A stretch of 64,000 nucleotides of DNA from Microgenomates bacterium OLB22 (GTDB lineage: Bacteria > Patescibacteriota > Microgenomatia > UBA1406 > HO2-37-13b): NCBI GenBank assembly GCA_001567515.1, contig LLEV01000008.1, positions 36,610 to 100,609 on the forward strand, read 5' to 3'. Position numbers and translations under genes: made by a program. Below the pieces are notes generated by a model, which did not search any database, was not told the origin of the DNA, and worked only from the letters and a program-made list of their open reading frames with translations. Of this stretch, positions 1-64,000 are shown one piece after another (within the stretch, counting starts at the first letter, position 1; each line of letters opens with the position of its first letter).

Positions 1-1
1 T

Positions 2-139
2 CAACGAGCTTATCTGACATCGTCAGTTGTTGATCTCACTCAATTTATTGGCAAGAAAGTCCGTGTTTGGGGACAAACATTTGAAGGACAAAAAGCTGGA
101 TGGCTGATGGATGTTGGTCTTGTAGAGCTTTTAGAATAA
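2..139 (+). CDS. 3' end of an unidentified gene entering the window (partial)
   Basis: Open frame from the window edge ending ...GKKVRVWGQTFEGQKAGWLMDVGLVELLE with TAA at 137-139; no family recognised. Confidence 0.3.
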   Translation, partial: QRAYLTSSVVDLTQFIGKKVRVWGQTFEGQKAGWLMDVGLVELLE

Positions 140-150
140 CCATCTGCATC

Positions 151-828
151 ATGATTCAATTTGCCTCTGTTACCAAATCGTACCCTTCAGGCTCTATAGC
201 ACTAGATGACGTCTCCTTTGAGATCCCTGAAAACGATTTCTTATTCCTCGTTGGACCTTCAGGAGCGGGGAAGACAACTGTCCTAAAGCTTATCATGCGA
301 CAAATCATGCCCACCTCTGGATCTGTCATGGTCGATGACACTGAGATCAGTACCCCACAGTTTACACAGGTCCCTGTGCTCAGAAGGGCTATCGGCATGG
401 TGTTTCAGGATTTTAAGATCCTTCGTGACAAGAGTATTTTTGAAAATATTGCTATCTCGCTAACTATATTAGGGCTTTCTAAAGCAGAGATTGAAGAAAA
501 GGTGACGGCAGCTCTTGATATCGTGGGACTTCAGACTCGAGCTGATGCTTTTCCTGTACAACTCTCGGCAGGAGAGCTGCAACGGATCGCTATAGCGAGG
601 GCTGTAGTAGGGGATCGATCTATCATCTTGGCGGATGAGCCTACTGGCAATCTTGATCCAAAGACGGCATGGGACATCATGGAGATATTCAAGAAGCTTG
701 AAGGTACTCGAACTATTATCATAGCAACTCATAACGCAGACATAGTTAACCACATGAAAAAGCGTGTCCTTACTATCATTGATGGTAAGCTCGCCGACGA
801 CGCAAAGAAAGGAGGATATCGACTATGA
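151..828 (+). CDS. ftsE: Cell-division ABC transporter ATP-binding protein FtsE
   Basis: Walker A GPSGAGKTT, ABC signature LSAGELQR, Walker B IILADEPT. Conserved N-terminus MIQFASVTKSY starts at ATG 151, so track ORF 100-828 is over-extended. ATGA start/stop overlap with ftsX. Confidence 0.9.
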   Translation: MIQFASVTKSYPSGSIALDDVSFEIPENDFLFLVGPSGAGKTTVLKLIMRQIMPTSGSVMVDDTEISTPQFTQVPVLRRAIGMVFQDFKILRDKSIFENIAISLTILGLSKAEIEEKVTAALDIVGLQTRADAFPVQLSAGELQRIAIARAVVGDRSIILADEPTGNLDPKTAWDIMEIFKKLEGTRTIIIATHNADIVNHMKKRVLTIIDGKLADDAKKGGYRL

Positions 829-1748
829 GCATGTATCAACTCATCCGTCGTAGTCCTTATCAGTCTTTGGCAACGTTTATTATCTTAACGCTTACTTCTT
901 TTATGATACTACTATTCTTTTGGCTGACTGCTTTTTCCTACAGTGCCTCAAAGGATATTGAGACAAAACCACTCTTGTTTGCCTTTTTCCAGACAACAAT
1001 TCCAGAACAAAACATTCTCGAGGTGAAAAGGAAATTGGAGGCAACTGGGATGGTCAAGGAGATGAAATATGTCTCTCAAGATGAAGCCCTAGATTTCTAT
1101 CGGAAGGCTAATGCAGACGACGAGCTTTTGCTTGAACTGGTAACAAAAGATATTTTGCCAGCTTCACTTGAGATGCGAGCCCATAAGGCTGAGGATCTGG
1201 GTAAATTGGAAGCACTCATTAAGCAGGAGTCTAGCATCGAGAGTGTGCAATATGCAAAAGAGGATGTGCGTCGTATTGTAGCTGCCACAGCAACATGGAG
1301 ACAGGTCACATTTATTTTTTTCATAGTGATGCTGCTGGTTACACTTCTGGTCCTTATCACGACTACTGCACTTAAGATAGCCATGCGTAGGGATGAGATC
1401 AATCTGCTACAGCTTCTCGGTGCCACAAATTGGTATATACGTGCCCCATATGTAAAGGAAGGCCTACTCTATGGGCTTGTCAGTGGTTCATTGGCTTTCG
1501 TAATTGGGATAGGAGTAATGTATCAGTATGTATCCAAATTGCTTCTTGCCACCTCTATCAAGGACGTGTTTCAGCTCAATACATCTCAAGAGTCTCTCGT
1601 TAGCTTTTTTAACCTGGGCCACTATGGATTTAGTATGGTTCCGCCTAGTATCCCCTTTTTGCTTGTGAGCTATGCTCTACTCCTTGTTTTTACCTCCTGT
1701 GTGGGGATGATTGGCAATTATTTTGCAGCTTCTAAATATATAAGCTAA
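825..1748 (+). CDS. ftsX: Cell-division permease-like protein FtsX
   Basis: 307 aa; N-terminal TM, ~110-aa extracytoplasmic domain, three C-terminal TMs (FtsX topology); translationally coupled to ftsE. Confidence 0.85.
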   Translation: MSMYQLIRRSPYQSLATFIILTLTSFMILLFFWLTAFSYSASKDIETKPLLFAFFQTTIPEQNILEVKRKLEATGMVKEMKYVSQDEALDFYRKANADDELLLELVTKDILPASLEMRAHKAEDLGKLEALIKQESSIESVQYAKEDVRRIVAATATWRQVTFIFFIVMLLVTLLVLITTTALKIAMRRDEINLLQLLGATNWYIRAPYVKEGLLYGLVSGSLAFVIGIGVMYQYVSKLLLATSIKDVFQLNTSQESLVSFFNLGHYGFSMVPPSIPFLLVSYALLLVFTSCVGMIGNYFAASKYIS

Positions 1749-3288: not shown

Positions 3289-4239
3289 AAAAACTAGTTG
3301 GCCGTATTCACGCACTTTTTATCCCCTCACATCGAAATAACTATCGTGCAAGAGCTCTCCATGTTGATGCCCTGGCAGTCTACGTTGTATTGGCTATCAT
3401 TGTTTTTTCCCTTCATACTCCGCGGGTACAGTCTGTATTGGGGATTGCCATCGATATAACTGTTGAACAATTATGTGCCCTGACCAATGCCCAACGAGCC
3501 AGTAATGGAGTACCCACTCTTAGCTGTAGCGGCCTTTTGGGTGCAGCCGCATCACTAAAAGCACAGGATATGTTTGCAAAAGATTATTGGGCTCACTTTG
3601 CTCCGGATGGGACATCACCGTGGGACTTTTTTTAAGAGGGTGGGTTATTCATATGAGGTGGCTGGGGAAAATCTCGCAAAAGATTTTCCAAATAGTCAAA
3701 GTGCCATGGATGGGTGGATGAACTCTCCAGCCCACAGACTCAATATTCTTCGTCCGGAGTATACAGAGGTAGGCTTTGCCGTGGTAAATGGCAATCTGCA
3801 GGGAAGTGATACGACTCTAGTGGTCCAATTTTTTGGAAAGCCGGCTGGTAGGACAGGGACAAGTGCCGCTGTTGGCCGTGCGACTAGCCAGGCAGTCGCA
3901 GCAGAAAGGACATCTCCTCCTATGCCAACATTTACCATCACCCCAACTCCACCTGTCTTGATCGGGAACACATCCCCTAAATCAGGCAATATCACACTCG
4001 GAGATAGTGCAACTACCACGAACTCCTTTTCTTGGTGGGATGGTGCGATAGATTATCTGTCCTCCCCTTCTATGAATTTTTTGATTGTGCTCTTTTTAGG
4101 AATTACCCTAATTATTGATATGTATGTAGCTTATCGAAATGACCTCCTGCGTTTAACGGGGAAAAATATGGCGCATTTGATGGTGCTTATAGTTGCTGTT
4201 GTGAGTTACTGGTTATTCGCGTCAGGAACCATTCTCTGA
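3285..4239 (+). CDS. CAP/SCP (PR-1-like) domain protein, membrane anchored; frameshifted as sequenced
   Basis: Track ORFs 3285-3635 and 3574-4239 encode the two halves of one CAP domain (...DYWAHFAPDGTSPWDFF | KRVGYSYEVAGENLAKDF...GWMNSPAHRLNIL). They join if T7 at 3627-3633 is read as T6. N-terminal TM, C-terminal TMs. Confidence 0.8.
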
Positions 4240-4242
4240 TCT

Positions 4243-6272: not shown

Positions 6273-7042
6273 CTAGAAGCTTAGTCCCAATATGTTTACG
6301 CCTATCAACTGTAGGATGAAGAGTGAGAGTATGATCATAGCCAGGCCAAATCCTGCAACACGGATCCTTTTCCATGCATTTTTCATCCTTTTCAGGGTTT
6401 CCCTCCGATGTCTGGAGCTGGAATGAGGCCCAGATGATCATCAAAAGTGCCGTAACTCCAGCGATCCCCAGACCAATACGGAAGACATAGTCCTGGATGA
6501 AAGTGCTAAATGACAGTGGTATGCAGCCTATGCCCGTCGGGAGTGCTTGTTTATCTACACACTTTATACACTCGAGCTTGTCTGTATTGGTGTTATACAT
6601 ATTGCAGATGCGTGAAAGTGATTTCTGGATAGGTGGCTTTGGTGTTGCGACACAAGTACATGCGGTGGCGGGGAATGATCCGGATCTTTGGGGAATTCCG
6701 ATAATACATTCGGGGATGCTATACCCCGTTACGGACTTGACAACTTTGTTTTGTAAGAGGGAATCAAGGGTGCCTCCTATAAATGCGGATATGCCTGAGC
6801 TGCCTGGGAGACCTGTGTTCGCAGCAACATCACTGGTGATGCCTTTGGAGTTTCCTGTCATGATCTCATAGGCACTACAACAACGCGGATAGAGGTCAGG
6901 GATACCACACAACCTTTTTTTCTGAGTCCTCTGTAAGCGTTTCCACGGTAGAAGAAGTGCTAAACTGAGCCTCCACAGGTCGTGGAAGAAAAAATAACAC
7001 CATGAGTAAAAACACCATGAATACTCTAATACGATTTCTCAT
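6273..7042 (-). CDS. Secreted cysteine-rich protein with C-terminal two-TM pilin-like module; two frameshifts as sequenced
   Basis: Three frames join into one model. (1) ATG 7042: MRNRIRVFMVFLLMVLFFLPRPVEAQF... (signal peptide), stopping at 6896. (2) Track ORF 6241-6912 (Cys-rich, ...IGLGIAGVTALLMIIWASFQLQTSEGNPEK). (3) Tail ...NAWKRIRVAGFGLAMIILSLFILQLIGVNILGLSF, stop 6273-6275. Joins need one base fewer in T7 6915-6921 and in T5/T4 6379-6392. Confidence 0.7.
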
Positions 7043-10000: not shown

Positions 10001-10142
10001 GCGCCTCATGGAGTATTGCCGAGTACATTGTGATAACAGCCTTTGACATAAGTCGTGCGAATTCATCTGATACCATGATCTCAAGTTCTCGTTCTTGTGC
10101 ACTGGCGAGGTCAGTGTATCCAGGTCGGTCGTTTTTGAACAC
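7092..10142 (-). CDS. Large orphan protein (1016 aa) with C-terminal tail-anchor TM; probably the C-terminal part of a larger gene
   Basis: Uninterrupted 3-kb ORF; no motif recognised. Last ~30 aa contain one hydrophobic helix (LYVYLPFLLLFFANFIFGAI). Annotated start is GTG with a 32-nt overlap on the upstream ORF in the +1 frame. Confidence 0.7.
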   Translation of the reverse strand: MFKNDRPGYTDLASAQERELEIMVSDEFARLMSKAVITMYSAILHEAPDAQFSHMASGAVTQDNRNPEQVYRRMLAMLTQLSDRAQQVETSDHPLAQLIRRGEKKRIVIGANGGAKEIIVPAVEFIDSGVSEFAQYLREILEASRGMVEYGHNFRFQMQQFQSGVDQGGTPNLFLKQVAAHAKRELPSERLDTISRLDHTGELVEAARMKYASKFQQLFSAREWRRTPDLVIRELMRSDTRLEEEIRGELEEQYGDTVEPWLLSWAYTMARTEFMGIDFGYHQTTSYADPNLDKDGKPTFTAEDAYQAILNFGDDAMRLQIKPVLLAGAMWAPVLYDWRQWRFNHDDVERIGKRSFQDSFKMGKLAKMGTPIEGYDLYMELGNKLTRRGGFFTNSGSALTGTYQEWIRDVLDPGSDGKKMAYSRDSLAQGWKCLENIGVDVLRNYFETFALGEIKDGTSMSDKAPEPSEKYVTAMKGLAGFLWDRYVEPNNDIAKTAFGDAPVDSKGSFVNYVGEILTSGGTEYKLRRKELMSRVYAGIEAIMIFEQLPSTYLTIEKRRVSEYGVLLSERIRSSITAPTGQAAEFERTYGVDSTDEEQWFRWYRTAVADLAFVEEALRMATSKEMDQILLEQGNLYGNLDNTRSSIRQGKGNRIDIDYIEQTLRARFTASTRITPEERDRRIKATLLLYSRLKEQVGHVPTVSDVLSNKAIAALGDKKKLADIDDKTIRKEQAARYAAILEKAQSGRMNSPIGWLAGGIQDGTFGFSLTSQTIPLRYLHMSASGSDTISKTALQTASTAELQYRMGGFSLWGGAKKALGALGKDPEEAFKAIFEYVNAAKGPSSDYLDSATVGTVGLAYLDLFQLFLRQDDKYARSVPARIDYEAKDKKRSFSDNTVADGAKLPASMGIYEQHALGIAATESGVLPYYKSANGEQWRTLNLNHPTLSRIPGLKNYLARHVRVRDFAREQSAESRGRAHSASEREYELYVYLPFLLLFFANFIFGAIKNGIKELKIG

Positions 10143-10483: not shown

Positions 10484-11149
10484 CTAACAGCGGGCCCGGG
10501 GGGGATCTGGTATGGTGAGATCTACTGTGGGCTCAGTAGTGACAAACAGGGGAATTTCACCATTTTGTAACAAAAACTGATTGAGTTCTCTATGCAATGG
10601 TAACGCTGCAATTTGCTGTGCGAGTCCGGGATCTTCTACGGCGTATCTACCTAGCTCACGTACCAAGGGTAGCGTTTCGGTGGGGAATATATCTTTTATG
10701 GTGTTTAGATCAGCCAAGGTTTCGATAAGGACACGTGGCTGTGAGACTGATGGGTCTCGTGCGACACTATGCAGTAGGGGTTGTATAAATAAAAGTTGTT
10801 CTAATGTGTCTTCTTGATCTTCTGTCGGACTCCATGTTGTAAGAGCACTAGCTATCTCGGTAGGGATAGCTGAGATGAATTCTTGCTGATCCTGGACAAT
10901 TCGATCAGGGTCAACATGACCCATTAAAGCAGCTTGAAGTGGCGTCATAATATCAGAAACAGCCGCTGATGTATCCCTTATAAAGGCTTTTTCTGGATCA
11001 GATAGCTCCTCGCCATTGCGCACCTTATCCAGAAGAATAAGGGCTTGCTCTCTAAGATAGTCCTTTTGAGGGGCTGACCCCACGCTTTGAAGGAGCTCCG
11101 ATCTGAAGCTATTGGATTCCCAGGATCTGGTTCTTTCATGTGCTGGCAT
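10484..11149 (-). CDS. N-terminal segment of the giant orphan gene (221-aa ORF)
   Basis: ATG 11149, 55 nt downstream of jag on the same strand; soluble, acidic, no signal peptide, no motif recognised. Confidence 0.55.
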   Translation of the reverse strand: MPAHERTRSWESNSFRSELLQSVGSAPQKDYLREQALILLDKVRNGEELSDPEKAFIRDTSAAVSDIMTPLQAALMGHVDPDRIVQDQQEFISAIPTEIASALTTWSPTEDQEDTLEQLLFIQPLLHSVARDPSVSQPRVLIETLADLNTIKDIFPTETLPLVRELGRYAVEDPGLAQQIAALPLHRELNQFLLQNGEIPLFVTTEPTVDLTIPDPPRARC

Positions 11150-14815: not shown

Positions 14816-16998
14816 ATGACGTGGCTGACGATAAGTCTTTTGTGGTATTTCAAATTAGTTGTACTGGGGATTGTCTTTCTCCCCATAACTATCGCTTTTT
14901 TTGGAGATCGTTTGGTGGATAAAGGATATGCCTTTAGTAAAGTCGTGGGCATACTTCTCTGTAGTTTTACGCTTTTTGTCCTTGGTGTTTTCAAGATAGC
15001 ACCATTTACTGTCATATCTGCCTTTACTGTTTTTGGTGGGTTTGCCATCATCAACATGATCGTTGCCAAGAAGGTTATTCCCAAAGGGACGATTACCGCA
15101 AGGGATGTTCGCATATGGTTCTTTATAGAGCTCCTTTTTTTGTGCAGCTTTCTATTCTGGGTTGTTGTTAGGGGGCAGGAGCCTTCAATAAGAGGTCTAG
15201 AAAAGTACATGGATTTCGGCTTCATCAATGCCATACTGCGAAGCACCTATTTCCCTCCCAAAGATATTTGGTTGGTCGGACACTTTATAAATTATTACTA
15301 TTTTGGACATCTCTCGGCGGCTACCCTCACCCTACTTTTTCAGGTGACAAGTGATATATCCTACAATCTCATCCTATCAACGCTTTTTGCGATGGGTATT
15401 ACTCAGACATGGTCACTAGTGGCGACATTACTCACCTCTATGACGGGACGCGTCAAGGCCTACTTCGGTGGATTACTTGGAGCCTTTTTACTCAACCTGG
15501 GAGGCAATCTCCATACCATCTATCTCTTCACAAAGGGATATGGGACGGATACGCCGATCCCATTTTGGAAGATTTGGTCCGTATTTAGTCCTAGTACCTA
15601 TTGGTACCCTAATGCTACCCGGTTTATCCCCTTTACAATCCATGAGTTTCCGAGTTATTCATACGTAGTGGCAGATCTGCATGGTCATGTGTTTGATATC
15701 CCATTTGTGCTTTTTACTATTGCCTGCATGCTCTGCATTCTAAAGACGGTCCCCTCTAAGCATACTGCCGCATTTGAAAAAGAAAAAAAGTTCTTGCCCA
15801 TGCTTTGGTCCTTCCTTTCACAGCATCACATCTGGTCTGCGCTCTTGCTTGGATCAATGGTGGGTATACACTACATGACCAATGCTTTTGATGGGATTGT
15901 GTACGGGGCACTTGGGTGGTGTTTCTATTTTTCATTACAATTTCTTGGCAATTGCGCGTACAATCATGGTCGCTGTTCGCTTTTTCCGCACTTATAACAA
16001 GTCTTCCCTTTTCTATTTTCTTTGAACCCTTTGCTAGTGGTGTGGGAGTGAATTGTGCCCCTTCTTGGTTGATTTCTATGGGCAAGATTGGTCCCTTGTT
16101 ATTTGAAAAAGGTAACTGTCAGATATCTGAGTGGTGGATGCTTCTTGTATTATGGGGATTCTTCCTCTGGTTTGGCATCGTTTATTTCATTATTCACTCA
16201 AAGAGCATACGGCATCTTGTTACTACTGCATTTTTGGGAGTAGTTGAGCCAAAGCAACGGATCATTTGGTTTGTAGGATTAATCTTTATTTTTGGGTTTC
16301 TACTCTTGGTAGTCCCAGAATTCTTATATCTCAAAGATATATATCCAGCGCATTTTAGGGCCAACACGATGTTCAAACTGGGGTATCAAGCGTTTATGCT
16401 CATGAGCATAGCAAGCGTCGTTAGCTTTTTTTTCAATTACAGCTATTCGATCAAAGTTGATGCGTATTGGTACGGGGATAGCGGCAATAGTCCTTATCTT
16501 TTTAGTCGGGATTTATCCTTACTTTGCTATCACGTCCTACTACGGTACCCTTGCTAAAGAGCCGGTACTAGATGGTACTATCTGGATGCAAAGCACCTTC
16601 CAGAATATAGAGAGGCCGTACTCTATCTGAGGGGCAACGCTACTGAGTCCACGGTTATTGTTGAGGCCCAAGGTGATTCCTATACTGACTTTAATATTGT
16701 CTCAGCCTACACTGGAATACCTACAGTGGCTGGATGGTGGGTACATGAGTGGCTGTGGAGGGGTAATGCCCAGGTAGTCGGTAATTTGATCCCTTATATA
16801 GAAGACTTCTATAAAGGTACTGATATAGAGGCAAAGAGAACATTTATTGATAGATTTAACATAGAATACATAGTAGTCGGGCCCAATGAAGAGCAGAAGT
16901 ACAGTCCACTACAGGAGGAAGCCCTACAGGCGGTAGCGAAAAAAGTGTTCACCTCAGCTAACGGACGAGTACGAATATATAGGGTATATAGTAGGTAA
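14816..16998 (+). CDS. DUF2298/YYY-domain large membrane protein; at least three frameshifts as sequenced
   Basis: Track ORFs 14747-15997, 15916-16557 and 16726-16998 plus an untracked frame (GIYPYFAITSYYGTLAKEPVLDGT) form one polytopic protein. It ends with ...SAYTGIPTVAGWWVHEWLWRG...IEYIVVGPNEEQKY. Joins are near 15900-15990 (one base short), at T8 16436-16443 (one extra) and at 16570-16600 (one short). Likely start MTWLTISLLW at 14816. Confidence 0.7.
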
Positions 16999-17149: not shown

Positions 17150-17449
17150 CTAGATCTTTATTGTGAACACTGGTATCGCAAGCCCTTTCTGTTTTAATTG
17201 CATCAGTTGGCTACGTACCGCCCGAATCTCAAATTCTGCTGCCGTCCCACTCCTTTTTACTCTTTTTTGAAAAAACAGTCTGAACATAGTGGCATTATGC
17301 CCAGCCCTCACCATCTTGTCAAGTCCTATAAGAAATAGCTTGTCAAAAAACAGCAGACCCATAGTACAACGAGGTCGCAATGGGACTTTGCGACGCTCTA
17401 TTACTATGTCTCTAGAGTCGTCCACAAAATGTGGATAACAATCTTTCAT
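17150..17449 (-). CDS. Hypothetical basic protein (99 aa)
   Basis: ATG 17449 preceded by GGAGG 5 nt upstream (the track ORF starts 6 nt earlier at GTG); no family recognised; contains the TTTTTTCAAAAAAG tract. Confidence 0.45.
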   Translation of the reverse strand: MKDCYPHFVDDSRDIVIERRKVPLRPRCTMGLLFFDKLFLIGLDKMVRAGHNATMFRLFFQKRVKRSGTAAEFEIRAVRSQLMQLKQKGLAIPVFTIKI

Positions 17450-17496
17450 ACGCACCTCCCCTCTGCTTTCTTTGGTGCAGTATAATATCGAGGCAT

Positions 17497-18211
17497 ATGA
17501 GTAAGATTCGAGTACTAACTACTAATCTATTCTTTAATTCAGATCGTGAGCATTTGAGTGACTTAGTTGCACAGGAGCAACCTGACATCATAGCTTTACA
17601 GGAGTTTTGTACGACGGAAACTGAACTAAAGAAGCTAGAGGAGTTAGAAGGGTATGTAGTAGCTGGGTTTTCTCACAATTATATTAAGAAGAATATTCCC
17701 TACGGGATCTGCACTCTCTATAGATCCATCGATATAAAGGTGAAAAAGCATGTTGAAGGCAGACTCGCTATTGGCTTATCAGAGTTTTTTATCATGCTAT
17801 TTCGAGGTCGCAAGTCACGGAGCGTGATGCATACGATTTTTGAAAGAGGCGGTAAGGAATTTTCTTTTGTAAATGTACACCTATCTCCATACGGGTCTAA
17901 TGCTATCCGCAAGAAACAACTATCGCTTATTTTGGAAAAGTATTGCAAAGGAACGAGATCAACTATCATAGCCGGGGACTTCAACTTTCCTTATCGGCGT
18001 CTACAGCTCGAGGAGTTACTCACACAGTATCACTTCAAAGAAGCAACAGAAGGTATTAGGCACACTTTTGTAAAAAAAGTGGTTAGGTTTTATACTAGTA
18101 CGGTTTAAGCTAGACTATGTATTTTATCGTGCCTGTGGGCATATCAGGACAGAACGACTTTCTCGAGTTTTATCAGACCATTATCCACTGATTTCTGAGT
18201 TTGATTTGTAG
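17497..18211 (+). CDS. Endonuclease/exonuclease/phosphatase (EEP) family protein; frameshifted as sequenced
   Basis: N-terminus KIRVLTTNLF...QPDIIALQEF. The C-terminal EEP signature KLDYVFY...SDHYPLISEFDL lies in the +1 frame and joins if A7 at 18072-18078 is A6. Stop 18209-18211. Confidence 0.8.
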
Positions 18212-21175: not shown

Positions 21176-21183
21176 AATGTTAT

Positions 21184-40392: not shown

Positions 40393-42055
<1,663 letters not shown>

Positions 42056-44877: not shown

Positions 44878-46615
44878 ATGAACACAACGGTTGAAGAAAT
44901 AAAAAGTCATGTGGACATCGTTGAAATTATCGGTTCTGTTGCGCAGTTGCAACGAGCTGGCAGGAATTTCAAGGCCCGCTGTCCTTTTCACCAGGAGAAT
45001 ACCCCTTCCTTTATAGTCTCTCCTGACCGCCAGAGATGGCGCTGTTATGGCGCATGCCAAGAGGGTGGTGATGTGATCTCATTTCTCATGAAATGGGAGA
45101 ACATCACCTTTATGGAGGCGATGCTTGAGCTATCTAAGAAGACGGGGATCTCCTTTAGTCCTTCAGGTATCGAAGACGGTATGTGGGACAGGAAGAAAAA
45201 GACTTTTCGCAATCAACGAATATGCTGCTCGAGTCTTTTCGTATATTCTGCATGCAAAGCCGGCTGGCAAGGCAGCTCTTAACTATATTGAAAAACGAAA
45301 TCTGCCGATAGAACTGATCAAGAAATATGGCATTGGCTTTGCTGCCGACCAGACACAGTTACATACCCTGCTGCTTAAGAAGTGGGATGAACAGGATATC
45401 ATAGCGACAGGTCTTTGTGGCACTCGAGGTCCTCGCAGCTATATGATCGGTTTCGTAGTCGTCTTATGTTCCCCCTGCTTGATGTAAGAGGCAACATAGT
45501 AGGATTTTCAGGACGACTTATAGGTGAGGATGATCGCCAGGCAAAATATATCAATACACCAGAGACAGAACTCTATCGTAAGCGAGAACAAGTGTACGGG
45601 CTCTACCAAGCAAAGGAATCAATCATCCAGAATAAAGAAGTAGTCATAGTGGAAGGTGAATTCGATCTTCTCAGGTGTGTACATCATGGGATAGGCAATG
45701 TCGTCGCTATCAAGGGTTCGGCATTCACCAGGGAACAGCTTCGGCTGCTAAAACGTTTCACCTCCCATGTCATTACGGCCCTAGATCAAGATAACTCAGG
45801 TTATGAGACAACAAAGCGCGCTTTTTTCGAGATCGAGCGGGAGGAGATGACTCACGCTGTATGTCTGTACACTGAAGGAAAAGACCCCGATGAAGCCCTC
45901 AGCATTAACGCAATAGCCTTTAAAAAAGCTTTAGAGCACCCCACAAGTATATTTGACGCTATCATGACTCATGCTCAGTCGAGGATAGATGTTACTTCAG
46001 AGCGAGGAATCAGGGACCTTTCTAAGGAGATGATGCCTTTCCTTGCCCAGGTAGAAAACCCGATACTAGCAGATCACTATAAAAAGAAGTTGGCCGACGT
46101 CCTGTCTGTCTCTGTTGAATCTATACATCAGAGTGTCGTCGCATTTTCACAGAAGAGATTGAAGGAAAGAATCGCGAGTATCAGATCAGAGCCTGGATCC
46201 GCTGATGAAGAGGGAGACAGATTTATCAGTGCCTATATCTTTCAGAATAAAAAGCCTTATGAAGCAAAGGAAGCGTTATTTCAGTCAATAGATGAGCCTG
46301 TAATAAAGACCCCCTCCTATCGTGAATTAGTGGAACAGCTGGACTCATACATGGGCACTCATGAGACATATATCCAGGCAGAATTTGTAGGAACTCTTTC
46401 TACTCCCCTTCGTGAGGTGCTAGACATAGCTGGTATGCTCGAGATTCCTGATGATCAAGATGATGCCTTTCATCATGCTCGCAAGATAGTGGTAAAGAGA
46501 TTTATCATGGCTCTACGGGATAAGCTAAGAAGTAGCATCAAAAAAAAGCGCTGCCGATGATATAGCTACTCTTACCACCAAGATCGCGCAAGTTGAAAAA
46601 GAGCAGGCACTCTAG
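44878..46615 (+). CDS. dnaG: DNA primase DnaG; three frameshifts as sequenced
   Basis: Zinc-ribbon [43 protein letters not shown]. Fragments 44878-45282, 45125-45487 and 45415-46560 join at A5 45196-45200 (one extra) and near 45420-45460 (one short). The tail …SSIKKSAADDIATLTTKIAQVEKEQAL appears if A8 46540-46547 is A7. Confidence 0.9.
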
Positions 46616-46630: not shown

Positions 46631-47725
46631 ATGACAAAGCAAAAAATCCCTCAGTCTTCCCAGGAGCTTCTTGGTCAAGGAAAGGAAAATGGATTTTTGG
46701 TTTTGGATGACATCCTCCTTGTTTTCCCACATCCTGAAAATCACATCGAAGCCATAGACGAACTTTTTGATGAGGCTATGCGCCAGAACATCGACATTTT
46801 TTGAAAATGTCTCCGCTAGTGACGAAGAAGATGTTCAAAAAATCACTCGAAGAGCTCGAAAAAAGAACTTAAGACTCTTATCACACTCAAGCAAGGTGAT
46901 TCGCTAGATCCTATCAAAATGTATCTCAAGGAGATTGGGAGACATCCACTTTTGACCTTTGAGCAGGAGGTCGATCTTGCCAAGAGATATGAAAAGAAAG
47001 ATAAAAAGGCTCGCGAAAAACTCATCAAGTCTAACCTTCGTTTAGTCGTCTCTATAGCCAAGAAATATCTGGGTAGGAGACTGTCATTTTTGGATCTTAT
47101 CCAGGAGGGAAATCAGGGACTTATTAAAGCGGTTGAGAAATATGATTGGCGACGCGGATTTAAGTTTTCTACCTATTCAACATGGTGGATTCGACAGGCA
47201 ATTACACGCGCCATCGCTGATCAATCGCGCACCATTCGTATCCCGGTTCACATGGTCGATAATATCAACCGCTATTATAAAACGCAACGCAAACTGACCC
47301 AAAAAAATGGCCGGGAGCCAAGTAACAAAGAGATTGCAAAAGAAATGCTCATGACTGAAAAGGAGATCGAGCATCTGATCCGAATTTCTCAACATCCCAA
47401 GTCTCTTTCTACCCCAGTTGGGGATGATAAGGAGGCTACCCTTGAGCAGTTTGTAGCAGATACTGATCAGCCTACTCTGATTGATTCTGTTTCAAAGGAG
47501 TTTTTACGTGACTACCTCAATGAAGTCCTGACCACTCTTTCGGAGCGCGAGAAAAAAGTATTGGTCATGCGATTTGGTCTTGAGGACGGCAAACCAAAAA
47601 CACTTGAAGATGTGGGTAAAGAATTCAATGTCACTAGGGAGCGAATACGACAGATTGAGGCAAAGGCAATCCGCAAATTACGACATCCGACCCGTGCCCG
47701 CAAGCTCAAAGATTTTCTAGATTAG
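46631..47725 (+). CDS. rpoD: RNA polymerase sigma factor RpoD (primary sigma); three compensating frameshifts in the N-terminal region as sequenced
   Basis: Regions 2-4 are in track ORF 46919-47725 (…[11 protein letters not shown]…[18 protein letters not shown]…). The N-terminus [33 protein letters not shown]… starts at ATG 46631 in the same frame. A 62-nt stretch between them is out of frame unless T6 46797-46802, A6 46837-46842 and A6 46859-46864 each lose one base. Confidence 0.9.
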
Positions 47726-55402: not shown

Positions 55403-56783
55403 CTACAATAATAGTATCAGACCCAGACCCACGAAGAAACTCAAGGTTCCTATGAGGAGAGCAGGTACGATAGTTGTCCCTGATATGGGTGGGGTACGAG
55501 TGGCACTCGGAATGCTACTAGTCGGCCCGGATGTCGGAGCGATAGTCCCCGTAGCTGAGGCCTCACTAGTCGGCTCAGGCTCGGGTGTTAGTGTTGCGCT
55601 ACCAGTGGCCTCCCCCAATACTGCTTCTCCACTTTTTAGCAATGTAAAGGACACTTTAGAACTATATGAATTTTTGCCAGTTGTTTTGGCTTCTATGGTA
55701 TAGTCACCAGGCAGGAGTGGTTGTTCACTACTAAATCTCCATACGCCAACACTATCGGCTCGAGCCCTTCCAAATGTGACATCCTTGCCCTTCTTTATAT
55801 AAATACTGATGATTTCATCTGGGAGGCTGATCCCTTTGATCAAAGGTTGTGAAGAGATAGAGGCTTTATCTTCAGGATAAATGATTTGCAGTGGTGATGT
55901 CTGGAGCTGTTTTGCCATCACTGAAGGACTGGGAGCCAGTGAAATCGTTGGTGTAGCTGTAGCCGTCTCTTGGTCACTTTGAAAACCCAAGACAGGGGGG
56001 GCTTCGGTAGGTGAAAAAGCCAGTTGCTGTTCTTTGTCGCCAAGAGAAAGAGTAGCCGAGGAGTTAATAAGAGTATCGAGACTGTAGCTCAGCACCTTTT
56101 TTTGTCCTTGATCGTCATATAGTCGGACTGATATATCAGTAGATAGAGGTAGCGACTGGATTGGAGCGCCATCTTTGGCGAGCATGCAACAAAGCGGTAT
56201 AAGAAATGAGCCATCAGCATCAGTCGTATCGAGTAGTATCTGGATATCCTCGGCTTCAATGATCACGACCGCATCAGCTGCTGGTTCACCTGACTCGGTA
56301 GTTACGTGTCCATAGATAGGAGATAAGGTCCCTACAGTGGTTATCCTCTGTGAACTGGTAAACTCATATATCAGCTTTTTACTCCCAATGGGATTTTGTT
56401 CGTCATCGACCAGGCTAACAAAATAAACCTTCTCAGGTTCGAGACCTTGTAGCTCGAAGACATGGGTAGTTCGCTCTCTTCTCATTGACTCCGTATCACG
56501 TTTATCGATAAGTCTTTTGTTCAGGTCTGTTGGGGAAGTTCCGTAGTGAAGTTGCCCGCGTGTCGGCTGTTTTGGTCTGGAATACGATGGTAGCTGTTGT
56601 TCCCGTCTTATTCCCTGTGAACGTATTTAATACAGCATTGGTTGACTGTACATTCTTCCCAAAAGTGAGATCCGGCAGTTTAAAGGGGGTACTACGGCGC
56701 ACATAGAAGATTGTTCCTACTACAAGGAGTAATATAAACGTCAAAAAAATCTCATAGCCATAGCGAGAAAGCGGTCTACTCAT
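55403..56783 (-). CDS. Large surface protein (FN3-like, CarboxypepD_reg-like and Ig-like domains) with C-terminal TM/sorting-like tail; frameshifted as sequenced
   Basis: ORFs 56502-56783 (N-terminal TM, …TATIVFQTKTADTRATS) and 55403-56485 join as …YGTSPTDLNKRLIDKRDTESMRRERTTHVFELQGLEPEKVYF (FN3-like) with one base fewer near 56530-56560. GHVTTESGEPAADAVVIIEA…DADGSF is CarboxypepD_reg-like. The protein ends …TRTPPISGTTIVPALLIGTLSFFVGLGLILLL. Confidence 0.6.
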
Positions 56784-56966
56784 TGCTTTTGCTCTAATTT
56801 TTCGATAACACCGACATCCAGATTTAGCTTAAGTGGCTTAGTAAACTCAGGGTAAGCCGCCTTTATTTGACGCGTTTGAGAAAGATGAAAAAAGATCCGC
56901 AATGATCCACACACTAATTGTGACGAAGATGGTGACCGATATAACCAATAATTCTTTTTGATTCAT
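56780..56966 (-). CDS. Small single-TM protein (61 aa) of the pilN operon; frameshifted as sequenced
   Basis: MNQKELLVISVTIFVTISVWIIADLF then HLSQTRQIKAAYPEFTKPLKLNLDVGVIEKLEQKQ if A6 at 56888-56893 is A5; ATGA overlap with the next gene. Confidence 0.5.
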
Positions 56967-56970
56967 AGCG

Positions 56971-57543
56971 CTAGTAATATCCTGATTCAATCGTTAATGA
57001 TATCTCAAGCTTTTGAGATTGTAGAGTGTCTTTTGTCATCCTAAATGCAGTGATATGTTTTAGTCGTGGCTGATTGAGCAGCGTTTTTATGAAGCGCGAT
57101 ACTTCGGCAAATGACCCCTGGATCTTGATCGAGAGATCGAGCGTTTTTTATTTTTATCTGAATCATCATGATAGGTAACTTCTCCAACATCTATTGACCC
57201 AATAGTCAGTGGAGTAGCCTCAGCGGCCTGACGTATCTCGGATATAAATGGCTGAAGTTGAGGTCCTGACGGGATCGCCGCCTCAACAAGGTAGGACTTT
57301 GGTCTAATACTTTCAAGTGCTCCTTGTAGAGCTACTATCTTGCGTATATTCGTCTCATAGATAGCATTGATGGCTTTTAGCTCTTGCGCTTCGTTGCTGA
57401 GGGACACAGCAATTCGTAGTACAGGACGTATTACGAAAAAAGCAAAAAACGATGAAAGCAGCAAAAACATGATGGCGTAGGTATAGTCTTGTACCTGCTT
57501 TTTCCCTATGACTTTTTTTTATAATTTCTACGGTATCAATCAT
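56971..57543 (-). CDS. pilO: PilO-like pilus assembly protein; two frameshifts as sequenced
   Basis: MIDTVEIIKK / VIGKKQVQDYTYAIMFLLLSSFFAFFVIRPVL…(TM, coiled coil)… / TLDLSIKIQGSFAEVSRFIKTLLNQPRLKHITAFRMTKD…LTIESGYY. Joins at T8 57513-57520 (one extra) and T6 57144-57149 (one short). ATGA overlap with pilN. Confidence 0.6.
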
Positions 57544-58067: not shown

Positions 58068-58093
58068 GCTCGTATCTAACTAGGCGAAGATCC

Positions 58094-58348
58094 TTACTTG
58101 GCTGATCGTTTCGCTATACGAGATTTGAGACGGCTTGCCTTATTTTTATGAATAACCCCTCTTTTTTTTGCTTTGTCAATTATGGCATATGCTTTTGCGA
58201 GTAAGTTAGTCTTGCTCGTTTTTGTAGCTTTACTTGAAGCCACTTTTTTTCATGGACTCTTTCACGTTTTTTTTTGATCTTAGCGTTGGCGGTCGTTCTT
58301 TTCTTGTCTTGATGCATCTTTTTGATTGCTGATTTTATTATTTGGCAT
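58094..58348 (-). CDS. rpsT: 30S ribosomal protein S20; three frameshifts as sequenced (absent from the ORF track)
   Basis: After GGGGGGTGA RBS, ATG 58348. Corrected reading: MPNNKSAIKKMHQDKKRTTANAKIKKNVKESMKKVASSKATKTSKTNLLAKAYAIIDKAKKRGVIHKNKASRLKSRIAKRSAK. Each of T4 58333-58336, T9 58267-58275 and T7 58244-58250 must lose one base. Confidence 0.85.
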
Positions 58349-58476
58349 ATGATTGTCACCCCCCTTTTCTACTGGTAAATGTATCACTAGTCTAGTTTAA
58401 TAAATAAGGGTGTAATATACAATATAGATTACTGAGATAATCTATATTTGACCAAAAGCATAACTAAAAGACCATT

Positions 58477-60109
58477 ATGGAGCGCATACTAAAAAACACG
58501 AAAGAACTTTTTTTAAGAAGGCAAAGCGACATCGTCTCATCTGCAATCTTGTTTGCAGGTATGATAGTAGTTTCACGTTTTTTGGGTTCATAAGGTATCG
58601 CAGCCTTACTACATTTTTTACCACTACTGAACTGGATATTTTTTTTGCAGCTTTTCGAGTACCTGACTTTGTATTTGAGGTGCTGATTTCAGGAGCCTTG
58701 AGCTCAGCCTTCATTCCTCTATTCATTCGTTATAAACAGGATGAAAAAACGTTCTCAAAGCATATTTCCTCGATTATCAATGTCATCATCACCTCACTTG
58801 CAATTGGGATGGGGCTTTTTTTGTTGCTTGCTCCTTATATCATGCCGTTGATTGCCCCAGGATTCACACCGGAGCAATTGGACCTCGTTGTCTCATTAGC
58901 ACGCATGCTTATAGCTTTGCAGTTGCCATTCCTGGTCTTGGGCGGGATACTATCGGGGATAGCCCAAGCTAACAGGATATTTTTGATGAGTGCCATCGCC
59001 CCGGTACTCTATAACGTATCTATAATACTGGGGACATGGTTTTTGGCTCCTTCACTATGGTTGTACGGCCCCATAGTCGGAGTAGTGGTAGGAGCTATTT
59101 TGCTATTTATTATACAACTACCTATCTTGTTTGCAGCCCCAATAGGCTATCGACCATTCATCTTTGTTCGCAGAGCAGTAAAAGAGTTTTTTACCTTATT
59201 TAGTCCTCGTTTGATGACAGTGATAGCCCGTCAGATTGATATGACTATTGATTTGACACTCGCATCACTACTTGGAGCTGGAGCCTATTCCACTTTTTAT
59301 CTGGCTCAGCAGATACAGTTTTTCCCAGTAGCTTTTGTCGGAATGTCCTTCGGGCAAGCCTCTCTTCCATATGTCTCCGAATTGTTTGAGCAAAAGAAGT
59401 TGCAGGAAGTGAGACGACTTTTTGTCCAATCATTGTTACAGATCCTTTTTTTTAGCATTCCTATTGGTCTTTTTTTTATCTTCGCTCGTACCCCACTCGT
59501 TCGTATTATAGCTGGAGGTCGTAAGTTCGACTGGGAAGCGACCAACATTGCTGCCCATATCGTGTCAGTCTTTGCGCTGTCTATTCCATTTCATAGCCTA
59601 TACTACTTCCTCGTACGGGTTTTTTTATGCTTGTCGTGACACCAAAACTCCTTTCTACATCAACATGTTTTTCGTGGCTCTTAACATTGCTATTTCGAGC
59701 TTTCTTGTACTGGTCTTAAAGCAAGGGGCTTGGGTGCTTGCCCTCTCATTTTCTGTCACAATCATTGGAAATGTCATAATATCTCTGATCGTTTTATACC
59801 GTAAGATAGGCGGATATCGACTTCCTGAGCTGTTTGGTGGAGTGACGAAAATTGTTATTGCCACAGTGTGTTCGGCATTTCCAGCCTATGTACTACTCCG
59901 TTTGTTGGATTCGCTCATCATCAATACCACTCGTACACTCAGTTTGCTTCTATTGATGTTTGTGGTGGGAGGGGTATACCTTTCCGGGTACCTATTACTT
60001 TGTTGGCTCTTAGGTGTCAGCGAGCTAGCAGTTGTCACAAAACTTTTTTGCTCGGGTACAACAGTATGGGAAAAAGCTGAGAGAAGTTTTTACCGATGTC
60101 ACTGTATGA
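58477..60109 (+). CDS. murJ: Lipid II flippase MurJ (MviN); up to three frameshifts as sequenced
   Basis: MERILKNTKELFLRRQSDIVSSAILFAGMIVVSRF(F)GFIRYR…DIFFAAFRVPDFVFEVLISGALSSAFIPLF… …RVFYACRDTKTPFYINM. Joins at T6 58578-58583 (one short) and T7 59620-59626 (one extra), and probably T6 60044-60049 (one extra), giving a stop at 60107-60109. Confidence 0.85.
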
Positions 60110-61636: not shown

Positions 61637-61644
61637 CTACTTAC

Positions 61645-63783
61645 TTACTCTTCCGGTATTGGTGATGTTGTCTCCATCCCAGGTCGATATAATACCTCTC
61701 GTCCCTTTGCACCACCCTCTTGTCCGATATATCCTTTTTCTGCCAGTATGTCGATTATTCTGGCAGCTCGCGAGTAGCCGATGTTCAGTCTGCGCTGCAA
61801 AAGCGATGTTGATGCTTTGTTAGCCTGTACTATGACATCAAGGGCCTGCTGTATCAGGGGATCTCCATCGTCTGATGAGGTCGATGAATGCGACATCCCG
61901 CCTCCTTTCCCTCTTTGACCGATGGGAACTTCTTGTTCGGTGATGGCCTCAGTGTAGTCAACACGCGGGACATGCTTTTTGAGGAATGTTACGAGATCTC
62001 GCACATCAGGGTCACTTAGGTAGGCGCTCTGGATACGATGAGGCCGCGGTTGGTCTGATGCCAAGTACAACATATCTCCTTTGCCGAGGAGGCGCTCAGC
62101 TCCAGGGGTATCAAGAACGACTCGAGAGTCAATCATAGAGGGGACATTAAAGGCGATACGTGTCGGGATGTTTGATTTCATAAGACCTGTGATGACATCA
62201 ACTGAAGGCCTCTGGGTTGCCAGTACTAGGTGGATCCCTACTGCGCGCGCCATCTGTGCGATACGAGTGATCAGGTCTTCTACCTCACTAGCTGCATAGA
62301 TCATCAGGTCCGCCAACTCGTCAATAATAAAGACGAGATAAGGCATGTTCTGTTTATCTTTATCAGGGAGGGCGTAGTAATTCAAAATATTTCTTACACC
62401 ATATTGAGCTAATAGCTTATATCGAGCTTCCATGGTATCCACTGTCCATTTCAGTGCCGAGATAATCTTCTTTGGTTCAACTATCACTTCAGTCATCAGA
62501 TGCGGAACGCCATTGTAGACACTTAGCTCAACTCGTTTTGGATCTACCATAATCATACGTACTTGGTCAGGTGTTGTTCTCATCAGTAGGGAGGCTATCC
62601 ACGCATTAAGGAGAACGGATTTACCCGACCCTGTTGTACCAGCGATCAGGGTGTGTGGCATAGTGGCTATGTCGGCGATGATAGGATTTCCGGAGACATC
62701 CAGCCCCATTGGTACTGCTAGAGGCTTACTTCTGTCGTTCAATATTGGCTGATCCAACATGCTTCTGAGAGATACGATCTGCGATTTTTTATTTGGTATC
62801 TCGATACCGACAAGAGACCTTCCAGGTATAGGGGCTTCTATTCGGACTAGTCCAGATGGGGCAGCAAGGGCTAGCGCCATGTCATTGGCTAGTGCGGTAA
62901 TACGAGTCAGCTTTATACCTACTGCTATTTGGAGTGCATACTGTGTGACTGTCGGGCCCTTATTCACTTCAGCTACCTGTGCTCGGATCCCAAAGCTTTC
63001 TAATGTCCTCTCGATGATCGCAGAGTTCATTGCGACGTCACCATAATCAGCCTCACCTTCCTTTACATGTGAAAGGATGCTTGTTGGGGGATATACCCAA
63101 TCAGCATACATCTTCGATGAGATCGAGCGCATTTGGAGGTTTTCAGCTGGAGTGCTGCTAGTAAGAGGCTTTGGTGGTGCCGGTGGCTCTTTCTTCATCC
63201 CTGAGTTATCTAAGTTAGGTATAAAGTCAGGTGATCCTTTTTTACTCTTTCCAACTGGCTCATTGAGTTGTCCTTTTGCAAATCCTAGTGCTTGTTGTAT
63301 AAACATAAATACAGCTGCTACAAAACCATCGACTGATGTGTTTAGAAATAAAATGAGACCAACTATTAGGGTGATAAGCAGGATGATAAGTCCCCCCAGA
63401 AAGGAGAAGTCAGCGGTCAGATTTTCAAATATTGTCCGGCCAGCCGAACCTGATCGGAAAAAGCCTAGAAGTGAGATAAGTAACATACCAAACCCGAGGG
63501 TCACATTGTACGTGATGATCTGAAACTTTTTGGTCTTGAAACAATGTGTAGCAAGCAGGAGTGGGACAAGAGGCACAAAGAGTGAAAGTATTCCAAATCT
63601 ATCAGTAAGTTGTGTGTGTATCCCTGTGAGGATACTTCCCGTCTGGATAAAAGATATCCAGAGTAGCATTGCCAGACCAAAGAGCGTTATCCCAATGATA
63701 TTTATAAAGATGCGTCGATGCAGTTTGACCTTAAACTTGAGGATAGGGACAGTGATCTGAAAAAATTCCTTGCGACGAGCCAT
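61645..63783 (-). CDS. ftsK: DNA translocase FtsK/SpoIIIE
   Basis: 712 aa; 4-5 N-terminal TMs, linker, motor domain with Walker A AGTTGSGKSV and Walker B FIIDELADL, C-terminal gamma winged helix (TSLLQRRLNIGYSRAARIIDILE). Confidence 0.9.
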   Translation of the reverse strand: MARRKEFFQITVPILKFKVKLHRRIFINIIGITLFGLAMLLWISFIQTGSILTGIHTQLTDRFGILSLFVPLVPLLLATHCFKTKKFQIITYNVTLGFGMLLISLLGFFRSGSAGRTIFENLTADFSFLGGLIILLITLIVGLILFLNTSVDGFVAAVFMFIQQALGFAKGQLNEPVGKSKKGSPDFIPNLDNSGMKKEPPAPPKPLTSSTPAENLQMRSISSKMYADWVYPPTSILSHVKEGEADYGDVAMNSAIIERTLESFGIRAQVAEVNKGPTVTQYALQIAVGIKLTRITALANDMALALAAPSGLVRIEAPIPGRSLVGIEIPNKKSQIVSLRSMLDQPILNDRSKPLAVPMGLDVSGNPIIADIATMPHTLIAGTTGSGKSVLLNAWIASLLMRTTPDQVRMIMVDPKRVELSVYNGVPHLMTEVIVEPKKIISALKWTVDTMEARYKLLAQYGVRNILNYYALPDKDKQNMPYLVFIIDELADLMIYAASEVEDLITRIAQMARAVGIHLVLATQRPSVDVITGLMKSNIPTRIAFNVPSMIDSRVVLDTPGAERLLGKGDMLYLASDQPRPHRIQSAYLSDPDVRDLVTFLKKHVPRVDYTEAITEQEVPIGQRGKGGGMSHSSTSSDDGDPLIQQALDVIVQANKASTSLLQRRLNIGYSRAARIIDILAEKGYIGQEGGAKGREVLYRPGMETTSPIPEE

Positions 63784-63903
63784 ACGTTCATTCTAGCTTT
63801 AGCAAAGGGAAAAGTCAAAAGAGTTATACTTAAGGATGAAGATGAAAAATCCCCGATATCAGAGAGCTCTGATTCGGGGGTTTCTCAATAGTTCGATTTG
63901 TTA

Positions 63904-64000
63904 TCATTCATCCTCTTTTTCATTGCGCACCATGGAGAGCTGATACGACCACGAGGGTCTACATCATCTACCCGTACAGTTACTTGTTCACCTTCCTTGA
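63904..64000 (-). CDS. 3' end of an S1-domain RNA-binding protein (PNPase-like C-terminus), partial
   Basis: Minus strand reads …KEGEQVTVRVDDVDPRGRIS then, after a one-base-short junction near 63935-63945, LSMVRNEKEDE and stop (63904-63906); the gene continues beyond the window. Confidence 0.4.

Follow-up and report, generated by a model that had tools for sequence, protein, structure and literature searches.

The window analyzed here, the whole 64,000-nt stretch (64 kb) of contig LLEV01000008.1 from Microgenomates bacterium OLB22, contains about 42 single-base frame breaks, the number given in a preliminary description made from the sequence alone, at which consecutive pieces of one protein lie in different reading frames. 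These breaks are almost certainly homopolymer-length consensus errors in a low-abundance bin of the candidate phyla radiation (CPR; Microgenomates/OP11), for whose assembly only Ion Torrent PGM reads were used. Assembly error at homopolymers, biased toward insertions, had been put forward as the leading explanation and this is now supported by the provenance of the sequence, the lesion spectrum, close relatives and contigs of the same strain. The breaks hit essential genes as described (groEL, rpoD, dnaG, rpsT, murJ, alr and the ATP-dependent DNA ligase gene) and also the C-terminus of pnp. The organism itself very probably has intact copies of rpoD, dnaG, groEL, rpsT, murJ, alr, the DNA ligase gene, pilO and others. 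The feature is an artefact and not new biology, of practical importance only.

Homology supports 33 of the 42 breaks, with open reading frame (ORF) continuity as the only support for the other nine (10498, 25181, 28061, three at 33.1-33.4 kb, 34117, 35603 and 54320). When the 33 well-defined edits proposed in the preliminary description were applied in silico, the fragments merged into long ORFs, open by construction, of 1351 aa (7092-11149), 599 aa (ligase), 375 aa (Alr), 550 aa (GroEL), 363 aa (RpoD), 1024 aa (helicase-nuclease) and 543 aa (MurJ). The orthologues of RpoD, the helicase, MurJ and GroEL have the same lengths (363, 1024, 543 and 550 aa) as does that of the pilin (112 aa in both), while the ligase orthologue has 598 aa. 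A self-written protein-to-DNA aligner, allowing one-base frameshifts at a penalty, was run with orthologues from relatives against the window and without a prior list recovered 25 junctions at or beside the coordinates described, all agreeing in sign, and no others in the genes covered (Table 1). Single Pfam domains cross the edited junctions at 3627, 6379, 18072, 25948, 26141, 31278, 43667, 57144 and 59620 and at the three rpsT sites. No nonsense codon was found in any frameshift-aware alignment path.

The concentration of the breaks in homopolymers is confirmed. The permissible zone of a junction was defined as the stretch in which the shift must lie, both frames being open, with the zone frames for 25181, 46837, 46859, 54320 and 60044 assigned by hand before the enrichment test. 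Twenty-seven of the 42 zones hold a run of at least 6 against 9.1 expected, a value reached by none of 5000 random zone sets of the same lengths, and 18 hold a run of at least 7 (4.1 expected). The share of runs lying at a break was 0.5% for runs of 4, 3.7% for 5, 9% for 6, 26% for 7 and 26% for 8, with both of the 9-mers in the window (2/2) at breaks. The G7 and C8 breaks represent two of the four G/C runs of at least 7 in the window and at least four breaks (45438, 63939, about 15918 and about 16599) are at non-homopolymer sites. All junctions rejoin with the addition or removal of a single base, except one (57144-57155) that rejoins with the removal of two. The bias toward one extra base holds among the homology-supported junctions (about 25 extra against 8 missing). 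By a hand estimate about five spacings between breaks are below 100 nt, a mild excess only over the roughly 2.6 expected at a uniform rate, the clustered breaks being in rpoD, rpsT and a gene at 33 kb. Some long runs are in frame as given, which was claimed for T8 at 58162 and holds there and likewise for T8 at 57696 and A8 at 25404; in all, roughly 130 runs of at least 6 are in frame.

A check proposed in the preliminary description, comparing the runs with their counterparts in the closest relatives, found the relatives in frame at every covered site. Three loci (L003, L007 and L008) have approximately 75% nucleotide identity to the window and jointly span 40.4-53.9 kb and 57.3-64 kb; they are in frame at all of the junctions that they cover, such that the breaks are not conserved across relatives. 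L003 (90% PcrA identity) and L007 are from a Logan assembly (SRR32910803) and L008 is from the Joint Genome Institute (JGI 3300081872), with L007 and L008 found via proteins that cluster with MurJ and GroEL at 90% identity. More distant syntenic loci were L001 (68% ValS identity) and L004 and L005 (about 60% identity). In MAFFT alignments covering about 25 kb, each 1-nt gap in window coding sequence (CDS) is a listed junction (Table 1), except that at 42198, and L003 and L008 agree against the window at all seven sites that both cover. Where the CDS aligns reliably, all other gaps have lengths divisible by three, with two exceptions, neither of which is a lesion of the window. The first is a 20-nt gap in region 4 of the rpoD of L008 itself (window 47602), splitting that gene into 324 and 39 aa, while the second is in the poorly conserved 5′ part of the sigma-region-4 gene, where an 11-nt and two 6-nt gaps (61162, 61188 and 61430) fall in an unreliable alignment. 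At 42198, L008 has A10 where the window has A7, truncating its RodZ-like gene to 154 aa, and the same-strain contig L029 confirms A7. These lesions of L008 indicate that the comparison assemblies are also not error-free. Single-base differences to L007 were also seen in non-coding DNA, with C6 against C5 upstream of rpsT (58359-58364) and one base in the rpsT-murJ spacer (58452); length errors probably occur in intergenic regions too, where they are invisible as frame breaks.

Across the broken genes protein identity to these relatives is 85-99% against about 75% nucleotide identity, with 99% for RpoD (outside the 67-nt shifted stretch), 96% for GroEL and 93% for FtsK, indicating that the sequence on either side of each break has been under strong purifying selection. 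This bears on the possibility that the breaks are true pseudogenizing mutations in a decaying genome or a dominant defective strain, since such flanking identity gives no sign of relaxed constraint. Replication slippage likewise favors homopolymers and rises with run length, and many CPR genomes are without some repair functions, both of which would suit pseudogenes. Yet the genes broken include single-copy essentials (rpoD, dnaG, groEL, rpsT, murJ, alr and ligase), there are no nonsense codons, indels in reliably aligned CDS are only of 1 nt or multiples of three and an intact version, 99.5-100% identical, exists in the same strain, leaving pseudogene formation extremely unlikely.

Contigs of the same strain were found in the Logan assembly of an independent run (SRR28716338) through exact copies of the intact Tag, PilN, a 152-aa protein and the RodZ-like protein. 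Three of these are 100% identical to the window (L026, 978 bp, 29830-30807; L028, 1390 bp, 26142-27531; L029, 984 bp, 41963-42946) and the fourth is 99.5% identical (L027, 1218 bp, 56921-58141). Two or three substitutions separate L027 from the window, so that the two do not represent the same data, and L027 also has three bases fewer. In the 4.6-kb overlap 32 of 36 runs of at least 5 agree, including T8 at 57696 and A7 at 42198, while the four that differ (57513, 57144, 57151 and 26141) are every one longer by one base in the window. The same-strain contigs are in frame at all three of the junctions that they cover (57513, 57144-57155 and 26141). With the run lengths of L027, PilO becomes an intact 189-aa ORF overlapping pilN by 4 nt, and the break at T6 57144, described as a missing base, proves to be two extra bases, one in T6 57144-57149 and one in T5 57151-57155. 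At 26141-26147, L028 begins AC AAAAAA TG where the window has AC AAAAAAA TG, and the first ORF of L028 is the alr tail in frame. This comparison counts against any biological reading at the three junctions reached and we infer that the remaining junctions share the same cause. No papers naming SRR28716338, SRR32910803 or JGI 3300081872, from which their sequencing platforms could be taken, were found.

The pilO tracts are also where a small real subset might be sought, in which phase-variation tracts in surface or pilus genes (G7 10498, C8 34117, the pilin and pilO) were captured by the consensus in the "off" state. Half of the long G/C runs lie at breaks, several of the broken genes are pilus or T4SS-pilin-like or encode large secreted proteins, and the differing pilO tract lengths in the same-strain contigs would look alike under population heterogeneity. 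Against this, the same error process covers these sites without an extra assumption, housekeeping genes are hit at an equal rate, and the pilO tracts are ordinary 4-8-nt A/T runs in the body of the coding sequence, unlike the repeat tracts of contingency loci, making such a subset exceedingly improbable. More broadly, it is very unlikely that at least some of the breaks are real, whether as length-variable G/C or A/T tracts switching pilus or surface genes or as slippage-tolerated frameshifts in a CPR bacterium; if they were, the same-strain pilO differences would represent population heterogeneity instead of sequencing error.

The preliminary description had also raised rescue by transcriptional slippage, for which no support was found. 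Here the frameshifts would be real and full-length proteins would be produced by transcriptional slippage or ribosomal frameshifting at A/T runs, in the manner of Buchnera and Blochmannia. CPR bacteria have small genomes, A/T runs hold most of the breaks, and apart from these the genes show no damage and remain under purifying selection, as in Blochmannia, dnaG included. The rescued frameshifts of Blochmannia lie in poly(A) or poly(T), affect 4-8 genes per genome and are in some cases conserved between populations or species, in extremely AT-rich genomes with 114-153 coding tracts of at least 9 bp (Williams and Wernegreen, 2010; PMC3017870). In contrast, the window is no part of an AT-saturated genome, having a GC content of 42-46% throughout (about 45%), and only two of the 42 runs reach 9 nt (T9 49350 and T9 58267), with most being of 3-8 nt alongside G7, C8 and the non-homopolymer sites. 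About 42 breaks in 64 kb are some 70 times the density seen in a whole Blochmannia genome. The breaks are absent from three close relatives wherever these cover them, the same-strain contigs carry the in-frame length at three junctions, and for a cluster such as the three extra bases in a 67-nt stretch of rpoD a single transcript would have to be rescued three times. Taken together these points leave rescue by slippage a vanishingly small chance.

The provenance of the window points to how homopolymer-length errors could have entered the consensus. The ValS and PcrA ORFs of the window match, at 100% identity, NCBI proteins from a 112,368-bp contig of Microgenomates bacterium OLB22 (tags UZ21_OP11001...), and another ORF matches locus tag UZ21_OP11001000593. 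The next-best ValS match is only 68% identical, indicating a CPR (OP11) bacterium with few sequenced relatives. We take the OLB genomes to be those binned from the Olburgen anammox reactor by Speth et al. (2016), and the name, habitat and OP11 locus tag lead us to infer that the GenBank OLB22 genome is the OP11-1 bin of that study. The study reported two OP11 bins of 0.9 Mb and sequenced exclusively with Ion Torrent PGM 400-bp reads (BioProject PRJNA274364), assembling with CLC and reassembling each bin with SPAdes (Speth et al., 2016; PMC4821891). Four of the eight libraries supplied the OP11-1 bin with 34,137 reads, each about 305 bp long, equivalent to about 11x coverage of 0.9 Mb; the bin had 1148 genes in 0.9 Mb, with the authors noting "persistent frameshifts, common in IonTorrent data" and citing Bragg et al. 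2013 (Speth et al., 2016; PMC4821891). If OLB22 is this bin, the assembly came from flow-based reads without polishing by another chemistry. In flow-based chemistry a homopolymer gives a single analogue signal, and longer runs are miscounted more often (in part after Bragg et al., 2013; PMC3623719). At low coverage a wrong run length could win the consensus, and each such miscount within a gene would shift the frame and cause the gene caller to output two or more fragments.

Several observations weigh against the breaks being errors of this kind. The string "OLB22" is absent from the text and supplement of Speth et al. 2016 (PMC4821891). In PGM raw reads long homopolymers are under-called and most insertions fall at 0-1-mers (Bragg et al., 2013; PMC3623719), and the same raw-read profile of under-calling has been reported by Song (2017), while the window over-calls long runs, which is the opposite of this published bias, and half of its missing-base breaks are at non-homopolymer sites. 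The same-strain contigs cover 3 of the 42 junctions only, and the evidence at 26141 is weaker because the site is at the contig end of L028. The mismatch in direction concerns a consensus after assembly and curation and as such weakens the claim of an artefact without excluding the breaks from this class of error. It may reflect the 400-bp chemistry or base caller, the low-coverage consensus of CLC and SPAdes, or the corrections made by the authors with a script (iontorrent_indel_correcter.pl) and by hand, which may chiefly have taken out errors of the deletion type or misplaced compensating edits. Pairs of one extra and one missing base 170-240 nt apart, the missing base being off homopolymers, occur in dnaG (45196/45438) and in the DUF2298 gene (16426/about 16599, zone to 16630); such pairs might be left over from a frame-restoring "correction" that was set in the wrong place when the authors curated the bin. 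Since the sites testable in the same strain are all over-calls, the mismatch leaves the biological reading closed.

The finding matters as a warning and not as biology. The deposited fragments are separate CDSs, with SigA as 57 and 268 aa, GroEL as 528 aa, MurJ as 319 aa and the helicase-nuclease as two "PcrA/UvrD1" entries, and these split pieces of essential genes now stand in public protein databases as separate proteins. The warning in the preliminary description that ORF-level claims in the window depend on the question of error was right and a corrected sequence is needed; until polishing, claims of orphan ORFs, gene loss, pseudogenes, unusual lengths or overlapping genes drawn from it are unsafe. 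The same caution probably extends to the whole bin and to other low-coverage bins of the Olburgen study. Extrapolated to a 0.9-Mb genome, the density in the window amounts to several hundred broken genes, which the 1148 genes of the bin would fit. For the window itself the edits listed in Table 1 suffice for a corrected gene set, which would be expected to hold about 65 genes in place of about 76 ORFs.

Most of the run coordinates in the preliminary description were accurate, with 34 of the 35 precisely listed runs exactly in place. The exception is T8 in the DUF2298 gene, which is at 16426-16433 and not 16436-16443. Two breaks were placed beside their actual sites, that at the 5′ end of rpsT (T4 58333-58336 in place of T3 58341-58343) and that at about 56530-56560 (T4 56570-56573). 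At 28061 the run named is within the zone, which also holds A7 28027-28033 as an alternative.

Table 1. Frame breaks in the window, with the position given by the protein-to-DNA aligner and the position of the 1-nt gap in alignments to close relatives.
Coordinates	Strand	Lesion	Gene	Aligner	1-nt gap	Further evidence
3627..3633	+	T7, one extra	CAP-domain protein gene 3285-4239			CAP Pfam domain, residues 66-180 of edited protein, spans junction residue 115
6379..6392	-	T5/T4, one extra	T4SS-pilin-like gene 6273-7042	6348 (extra, near)		T4SS_pilin Pfam residues 191-246 span junction residue 221
6915..6921	-	T7 (sense A7), one extra	T4SS-pilin-like gene 6273-7042	6937 (extra, near; L001 271-aa orthologue)		T7 is longest run in zone 6896-7038
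10132..10136	-	T5, one extra	1351-aa protein gene 7092-11149			BLASTP match across junction residue 339 (see text)
10498..10504	-	G7, one extra	N-terminal part of 1351-aa CPR protein, 7092-11149			ORF continuity only
15892..15997	+	zone with one missing base	DUF2298 membrane protein gene 14747-16998	15918 (missing, near; L001 713-aa orthologue, 53% identity)		Zone with only T5 and G4 runs
16426..16433	+	T8, one extra	DUF2298 gene 14747-16998	16462 (extra, near)		T8 is longest run in zone 16412-16557
16558..16630	+	zone with one missing base, non-homopolymer	DUF2298 gene	16599 (missing, near)		Zone without a run of at least 4
17431..18211 (gene); 18072..18078 (run)	+	A7, one extra	Endonuclease/exonuclease/phosphatase-family gene			Exo_endo_phos Pfam residues 31-250 span junction residue 214
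20213..20222	-	T4CT5, one extra	ATP-dependent DNA ligase gene 19396-21196	20215 (extra; L001 598-aa ligase)		Edited ligase 599 aa
25181..25185	+	T5, one missing	alr (alanine racemase), residue 4			Plausible only; Ala_racemase_N starts at edited residue 19 (about nt 25224), first in-frame start of unedited ORF at 25283
25948..25955	+	A8, one extra	alr			Ala_racemase_C residues 247-373 span junction residues 260 (25948) and 324 (26141)
26141..26147	+	A7, one extra	alr			A6 in same-strain L028
28015..28097	+	zone with one extra, A7 28027-28033 or A5 28061-28065	442-aa membrane protein, C-terminus			Unverified; 28061 edit lengthens ORF from 418 to 442 aa, continuity only, no Pfam match
31258..31358	+	zone with one extra (preliminary description: T4 31278-31281)	Bax-inhibitor-1 family gene 30801-31491			Bax1-I Pfam residues 24-222 span junction residue 160
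33151..33382	-	three successive +1 shifts, zones 33357-33382, 33281-33318 (with A5 33299-33303) and 33151-33194	Small gene, about 116 aa			Unverified; four short open segments chain in frames 0, 1, 2, 0; no Pfam match for merged protein of about 116 aa
34117..34124	-	C8 (sense G8), one extra	Joins 96- and 201-aa ORFs into 281 aa			ORF continuity only; same-strand ORFs overlap by 50 nt; only C8 of window; no Pfam match for edited protein
35603..35609	-	A7, one extra	Small heat-shock protein (sHSP) gene 35231-35690, N-terminal arm			Plausible; edit adds arm with FDPF and DPF motifs, giving 152 aa; HSP20 domain (residues 47-145) downstream of junction
41923..41928	+	A6, one extra	groEL; C-terminal 42 residues cut off, GGM tail included	41923	41923	L008 has A5 in near-identical context (one mismatch in flanking 24 bases), GroEL 550 aa, 96% identical; edited GroEL 550 aa
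43667..43672	+	A6, one missing	T4SS-pilin gene 43442-43779	43674 (missing)	43669	L008 orthologue 112 aa, equal to edited length; T4SS_pilin Pfam residues 31-99 span residue 76
45196..45200	+	A5, one extra	dnaG	45196 (extra)	45191 (both L003 and L008)	With 45438 puts 80 codons out of frame; those 80 aa match relatives only in shifted frame
45438..45439	+	one missing, non-homopolymer	dnaG	45438	45439	AGTCT in both L003 and L008, AG-CT in window
46540..46547	+	A8, one extra	dnaG, C-terminus	46540	46548 (L003 and L008)
46797..46864	+	three extra: T6 46797-46802, A6 46837-46842, A6 46859-46864	rpoD	46799, 46839, 46861 (extra; three orthologues)	46797, 46837, 46857	Three stop codons as given between three +1 shifts within 67 nt; edited RpoD 363 aa, 99% identical to 363-aa protein of L003
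49350..49358	-	T9 (sense A9), one extra; true length probably A8	UvrD/PDDEXK helicase-nuclease gene 47735-50810	49358	49359 (L003 and L008)	Edited protein 1024 aa, as in L003
54320..54323	-	T4, proposed extra	154/182-aa secreted protein, near C-terminus			Unverified; with the edit the 182-aa ORF is reduced to 154 aa; site covered by no orthologue and by no significant Pfam match
56570..56573	-	T4, one extra	Gene orthologous to 431- and 439-aa proteins of relatives	56573 (extra; L004 and L005)
56888..56893	-	A6, one extra	61-aa pilus-operon gene	56891 (extra; 61-aa orthologues of L004 and L005)
57144..57155	-	T6 and T5, two extra	pilO	57133		A4TA5 in same-strain L027, A5TA6 in window; Pfam PilO spans site
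57513..57520	-	T8, one extra	pilO, residue 10		57523 (L007)	A7 in same-strain L027, A8 in window (sense)
58244..58275	-	T7 58244-58250 and T9 58267-58275, one extra each	rpsT	58250, 58275 (extra; L007 S20, 89% identity)	58244, 58267 (L007)	Ribosomal_S20p Pfam full length after rpsT edits
58341..58343	-	T3, one extra	rpsT, between start codon and codon 3		58341	L007 TTATTA-TTGGCATATG, giving MPIIKSA; window TTATTATTTGGCATATG
58578..58583	+	T6, one missing	murJ, residue 34	58577 (missing, 58577-58589; three orthologues)	58578 (gap in window, L007)
59620..59626	+	T7, one extra	murJ	59622 (extra; three orthologues)	59620	MurJ Pfam residues 45-474 span residue 382
60044..60049	+	T6, one extra	murJ, C-terminus	60046 (extra; three orthologues)	60043	Edited MurJ 543 aa, as in L007
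61243..61249	+	A7, one missing	Small sigma-70 region-4 protein gene 61140-61636	61249 (missing; L007 163-aa orthologue)	61244
63939..63940	-	one missing (G; GG in L007)	pnp, C-terminus, window edge	63940 (missing; L007 PNPase, 93% identity)	63939

The ORF of 3 kb that had been called an orphan is not one, but forms the C-terminal 1016 aa of the 1351-aa protein, with the edits at 10498 and 10132 joining ORFs of 221, 85 and 1016 aa. In BLASTP the edited N-terminal 504 aa align to the protein P0243 over residues 325-491, across the junction at 10132. The 1016-aa part has 56 homologues, mostly of 1200-1280 aa and matching from their residue 270-330 (best E-value 1e-110), with no NCBIfam match, and the gene is syntenic with a 1329-aa gene beside yidC and an R3H gene in L001. 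The whole product of 7092-11149 looks like a large, conserved CPR protein of unknown function. Alignment of the 1329-aa orthologue to the 1351-aa gene, at 26% identity, gave spurious shifts and was not used.

In the search for relatives covering the junctions at 25-36 kb, scanning metagenome contigs for the HD-domain protein gave distant human-gut matches only; a PcrA scan of genome contigs gave one distant Elusimicrobia locus only (38% identity). Rfam and tRNA scans of the ORF-poor 32.3-33.5 kb found nothing. An N-terminal arm of the kind restored by the edit at 35603 is typical of sHSPs. Runs of A8-A10 at 29391-29398, 32541-32548, 33072-33081 and 35183-35190, followed by short G+C-rich stretches (GGCCCCT, CCCCGCC, GGACTCC and GCCCCTT), resemble minus-strand T-tails of intrinsic terminators, with lengths as unreliable as those of the coding runs.

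Two genes of the T4SS-pilin family (6273-7042 and 43442-43779) are present in the window, and a cluster of pilN, pilO and a small gene (56780-58067) adjoins rpsT in a gene order kept in four relatives. The mechanical ORF 37006-38178 contains, at its 5′ end, a tRNA-Ser(TGA) at 38070-38156 on the minus strand; the GenBank protein at this locus is of 336 aa with its start after the tRNA, and the protein of the ORF has no homologue except itself in 5.8 billion sequences. ValS (12633-14756, minus strand) is of 707 aa and matches positions 2-691 of the 860-position bacterial ValS profile. As its best 120 homologues are all also of about 700 aa, the short C-terminus is a lineage trait of these CPR bacteria and not a truncation.

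Among known systems, the pseudogene-rich genomes of recently host-restricted bacteria resemble the window in their high density of broken ORFs. Nonsense mutations, larger deletions, insertion sequence (IS) insertions and relaxed constraint occur together in such genomes, whereas the window has single-base indels only and its constraint is intact. Buchnera and Blochmannia likewise have A/T-tract frameshifts in otherwise intact, constrained genes, essential ones like dnaG among them (Tamas et al., 2008; Williams and Wernegreen, 2010; PMC3017870), but both are extremely AT-rich, their tracts are of at least 9 nt and their frameshifts conserved, while those of the window are mostly of 3-8 nt and absent both in relatives and in the same strain. 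The flow-based errors of Ion Torrent PGM and 454 are alike in being single-base indels with a rate rising with run length, with A and T flows the most error-prone and frameshifts in assemblies named as a consequence (Bragg et al., 2013; PMC3623719), and unlike in that long runs are under-called in the published data but over-called in the window, where missing bases are often off homopolymers. The first PacBio genome of Clostridium autoethanogenum, with 243 single-base errors, more than 90% of them in homopolymers above 4 nt (PMC4687164), came from another platform and its errors were all deletions, at a density of one in about 18 kb compared with one in about 1.5 kb in the window. Like the window, this finished public genome carried frameshifted and split annotations, which an independent read set exposed.

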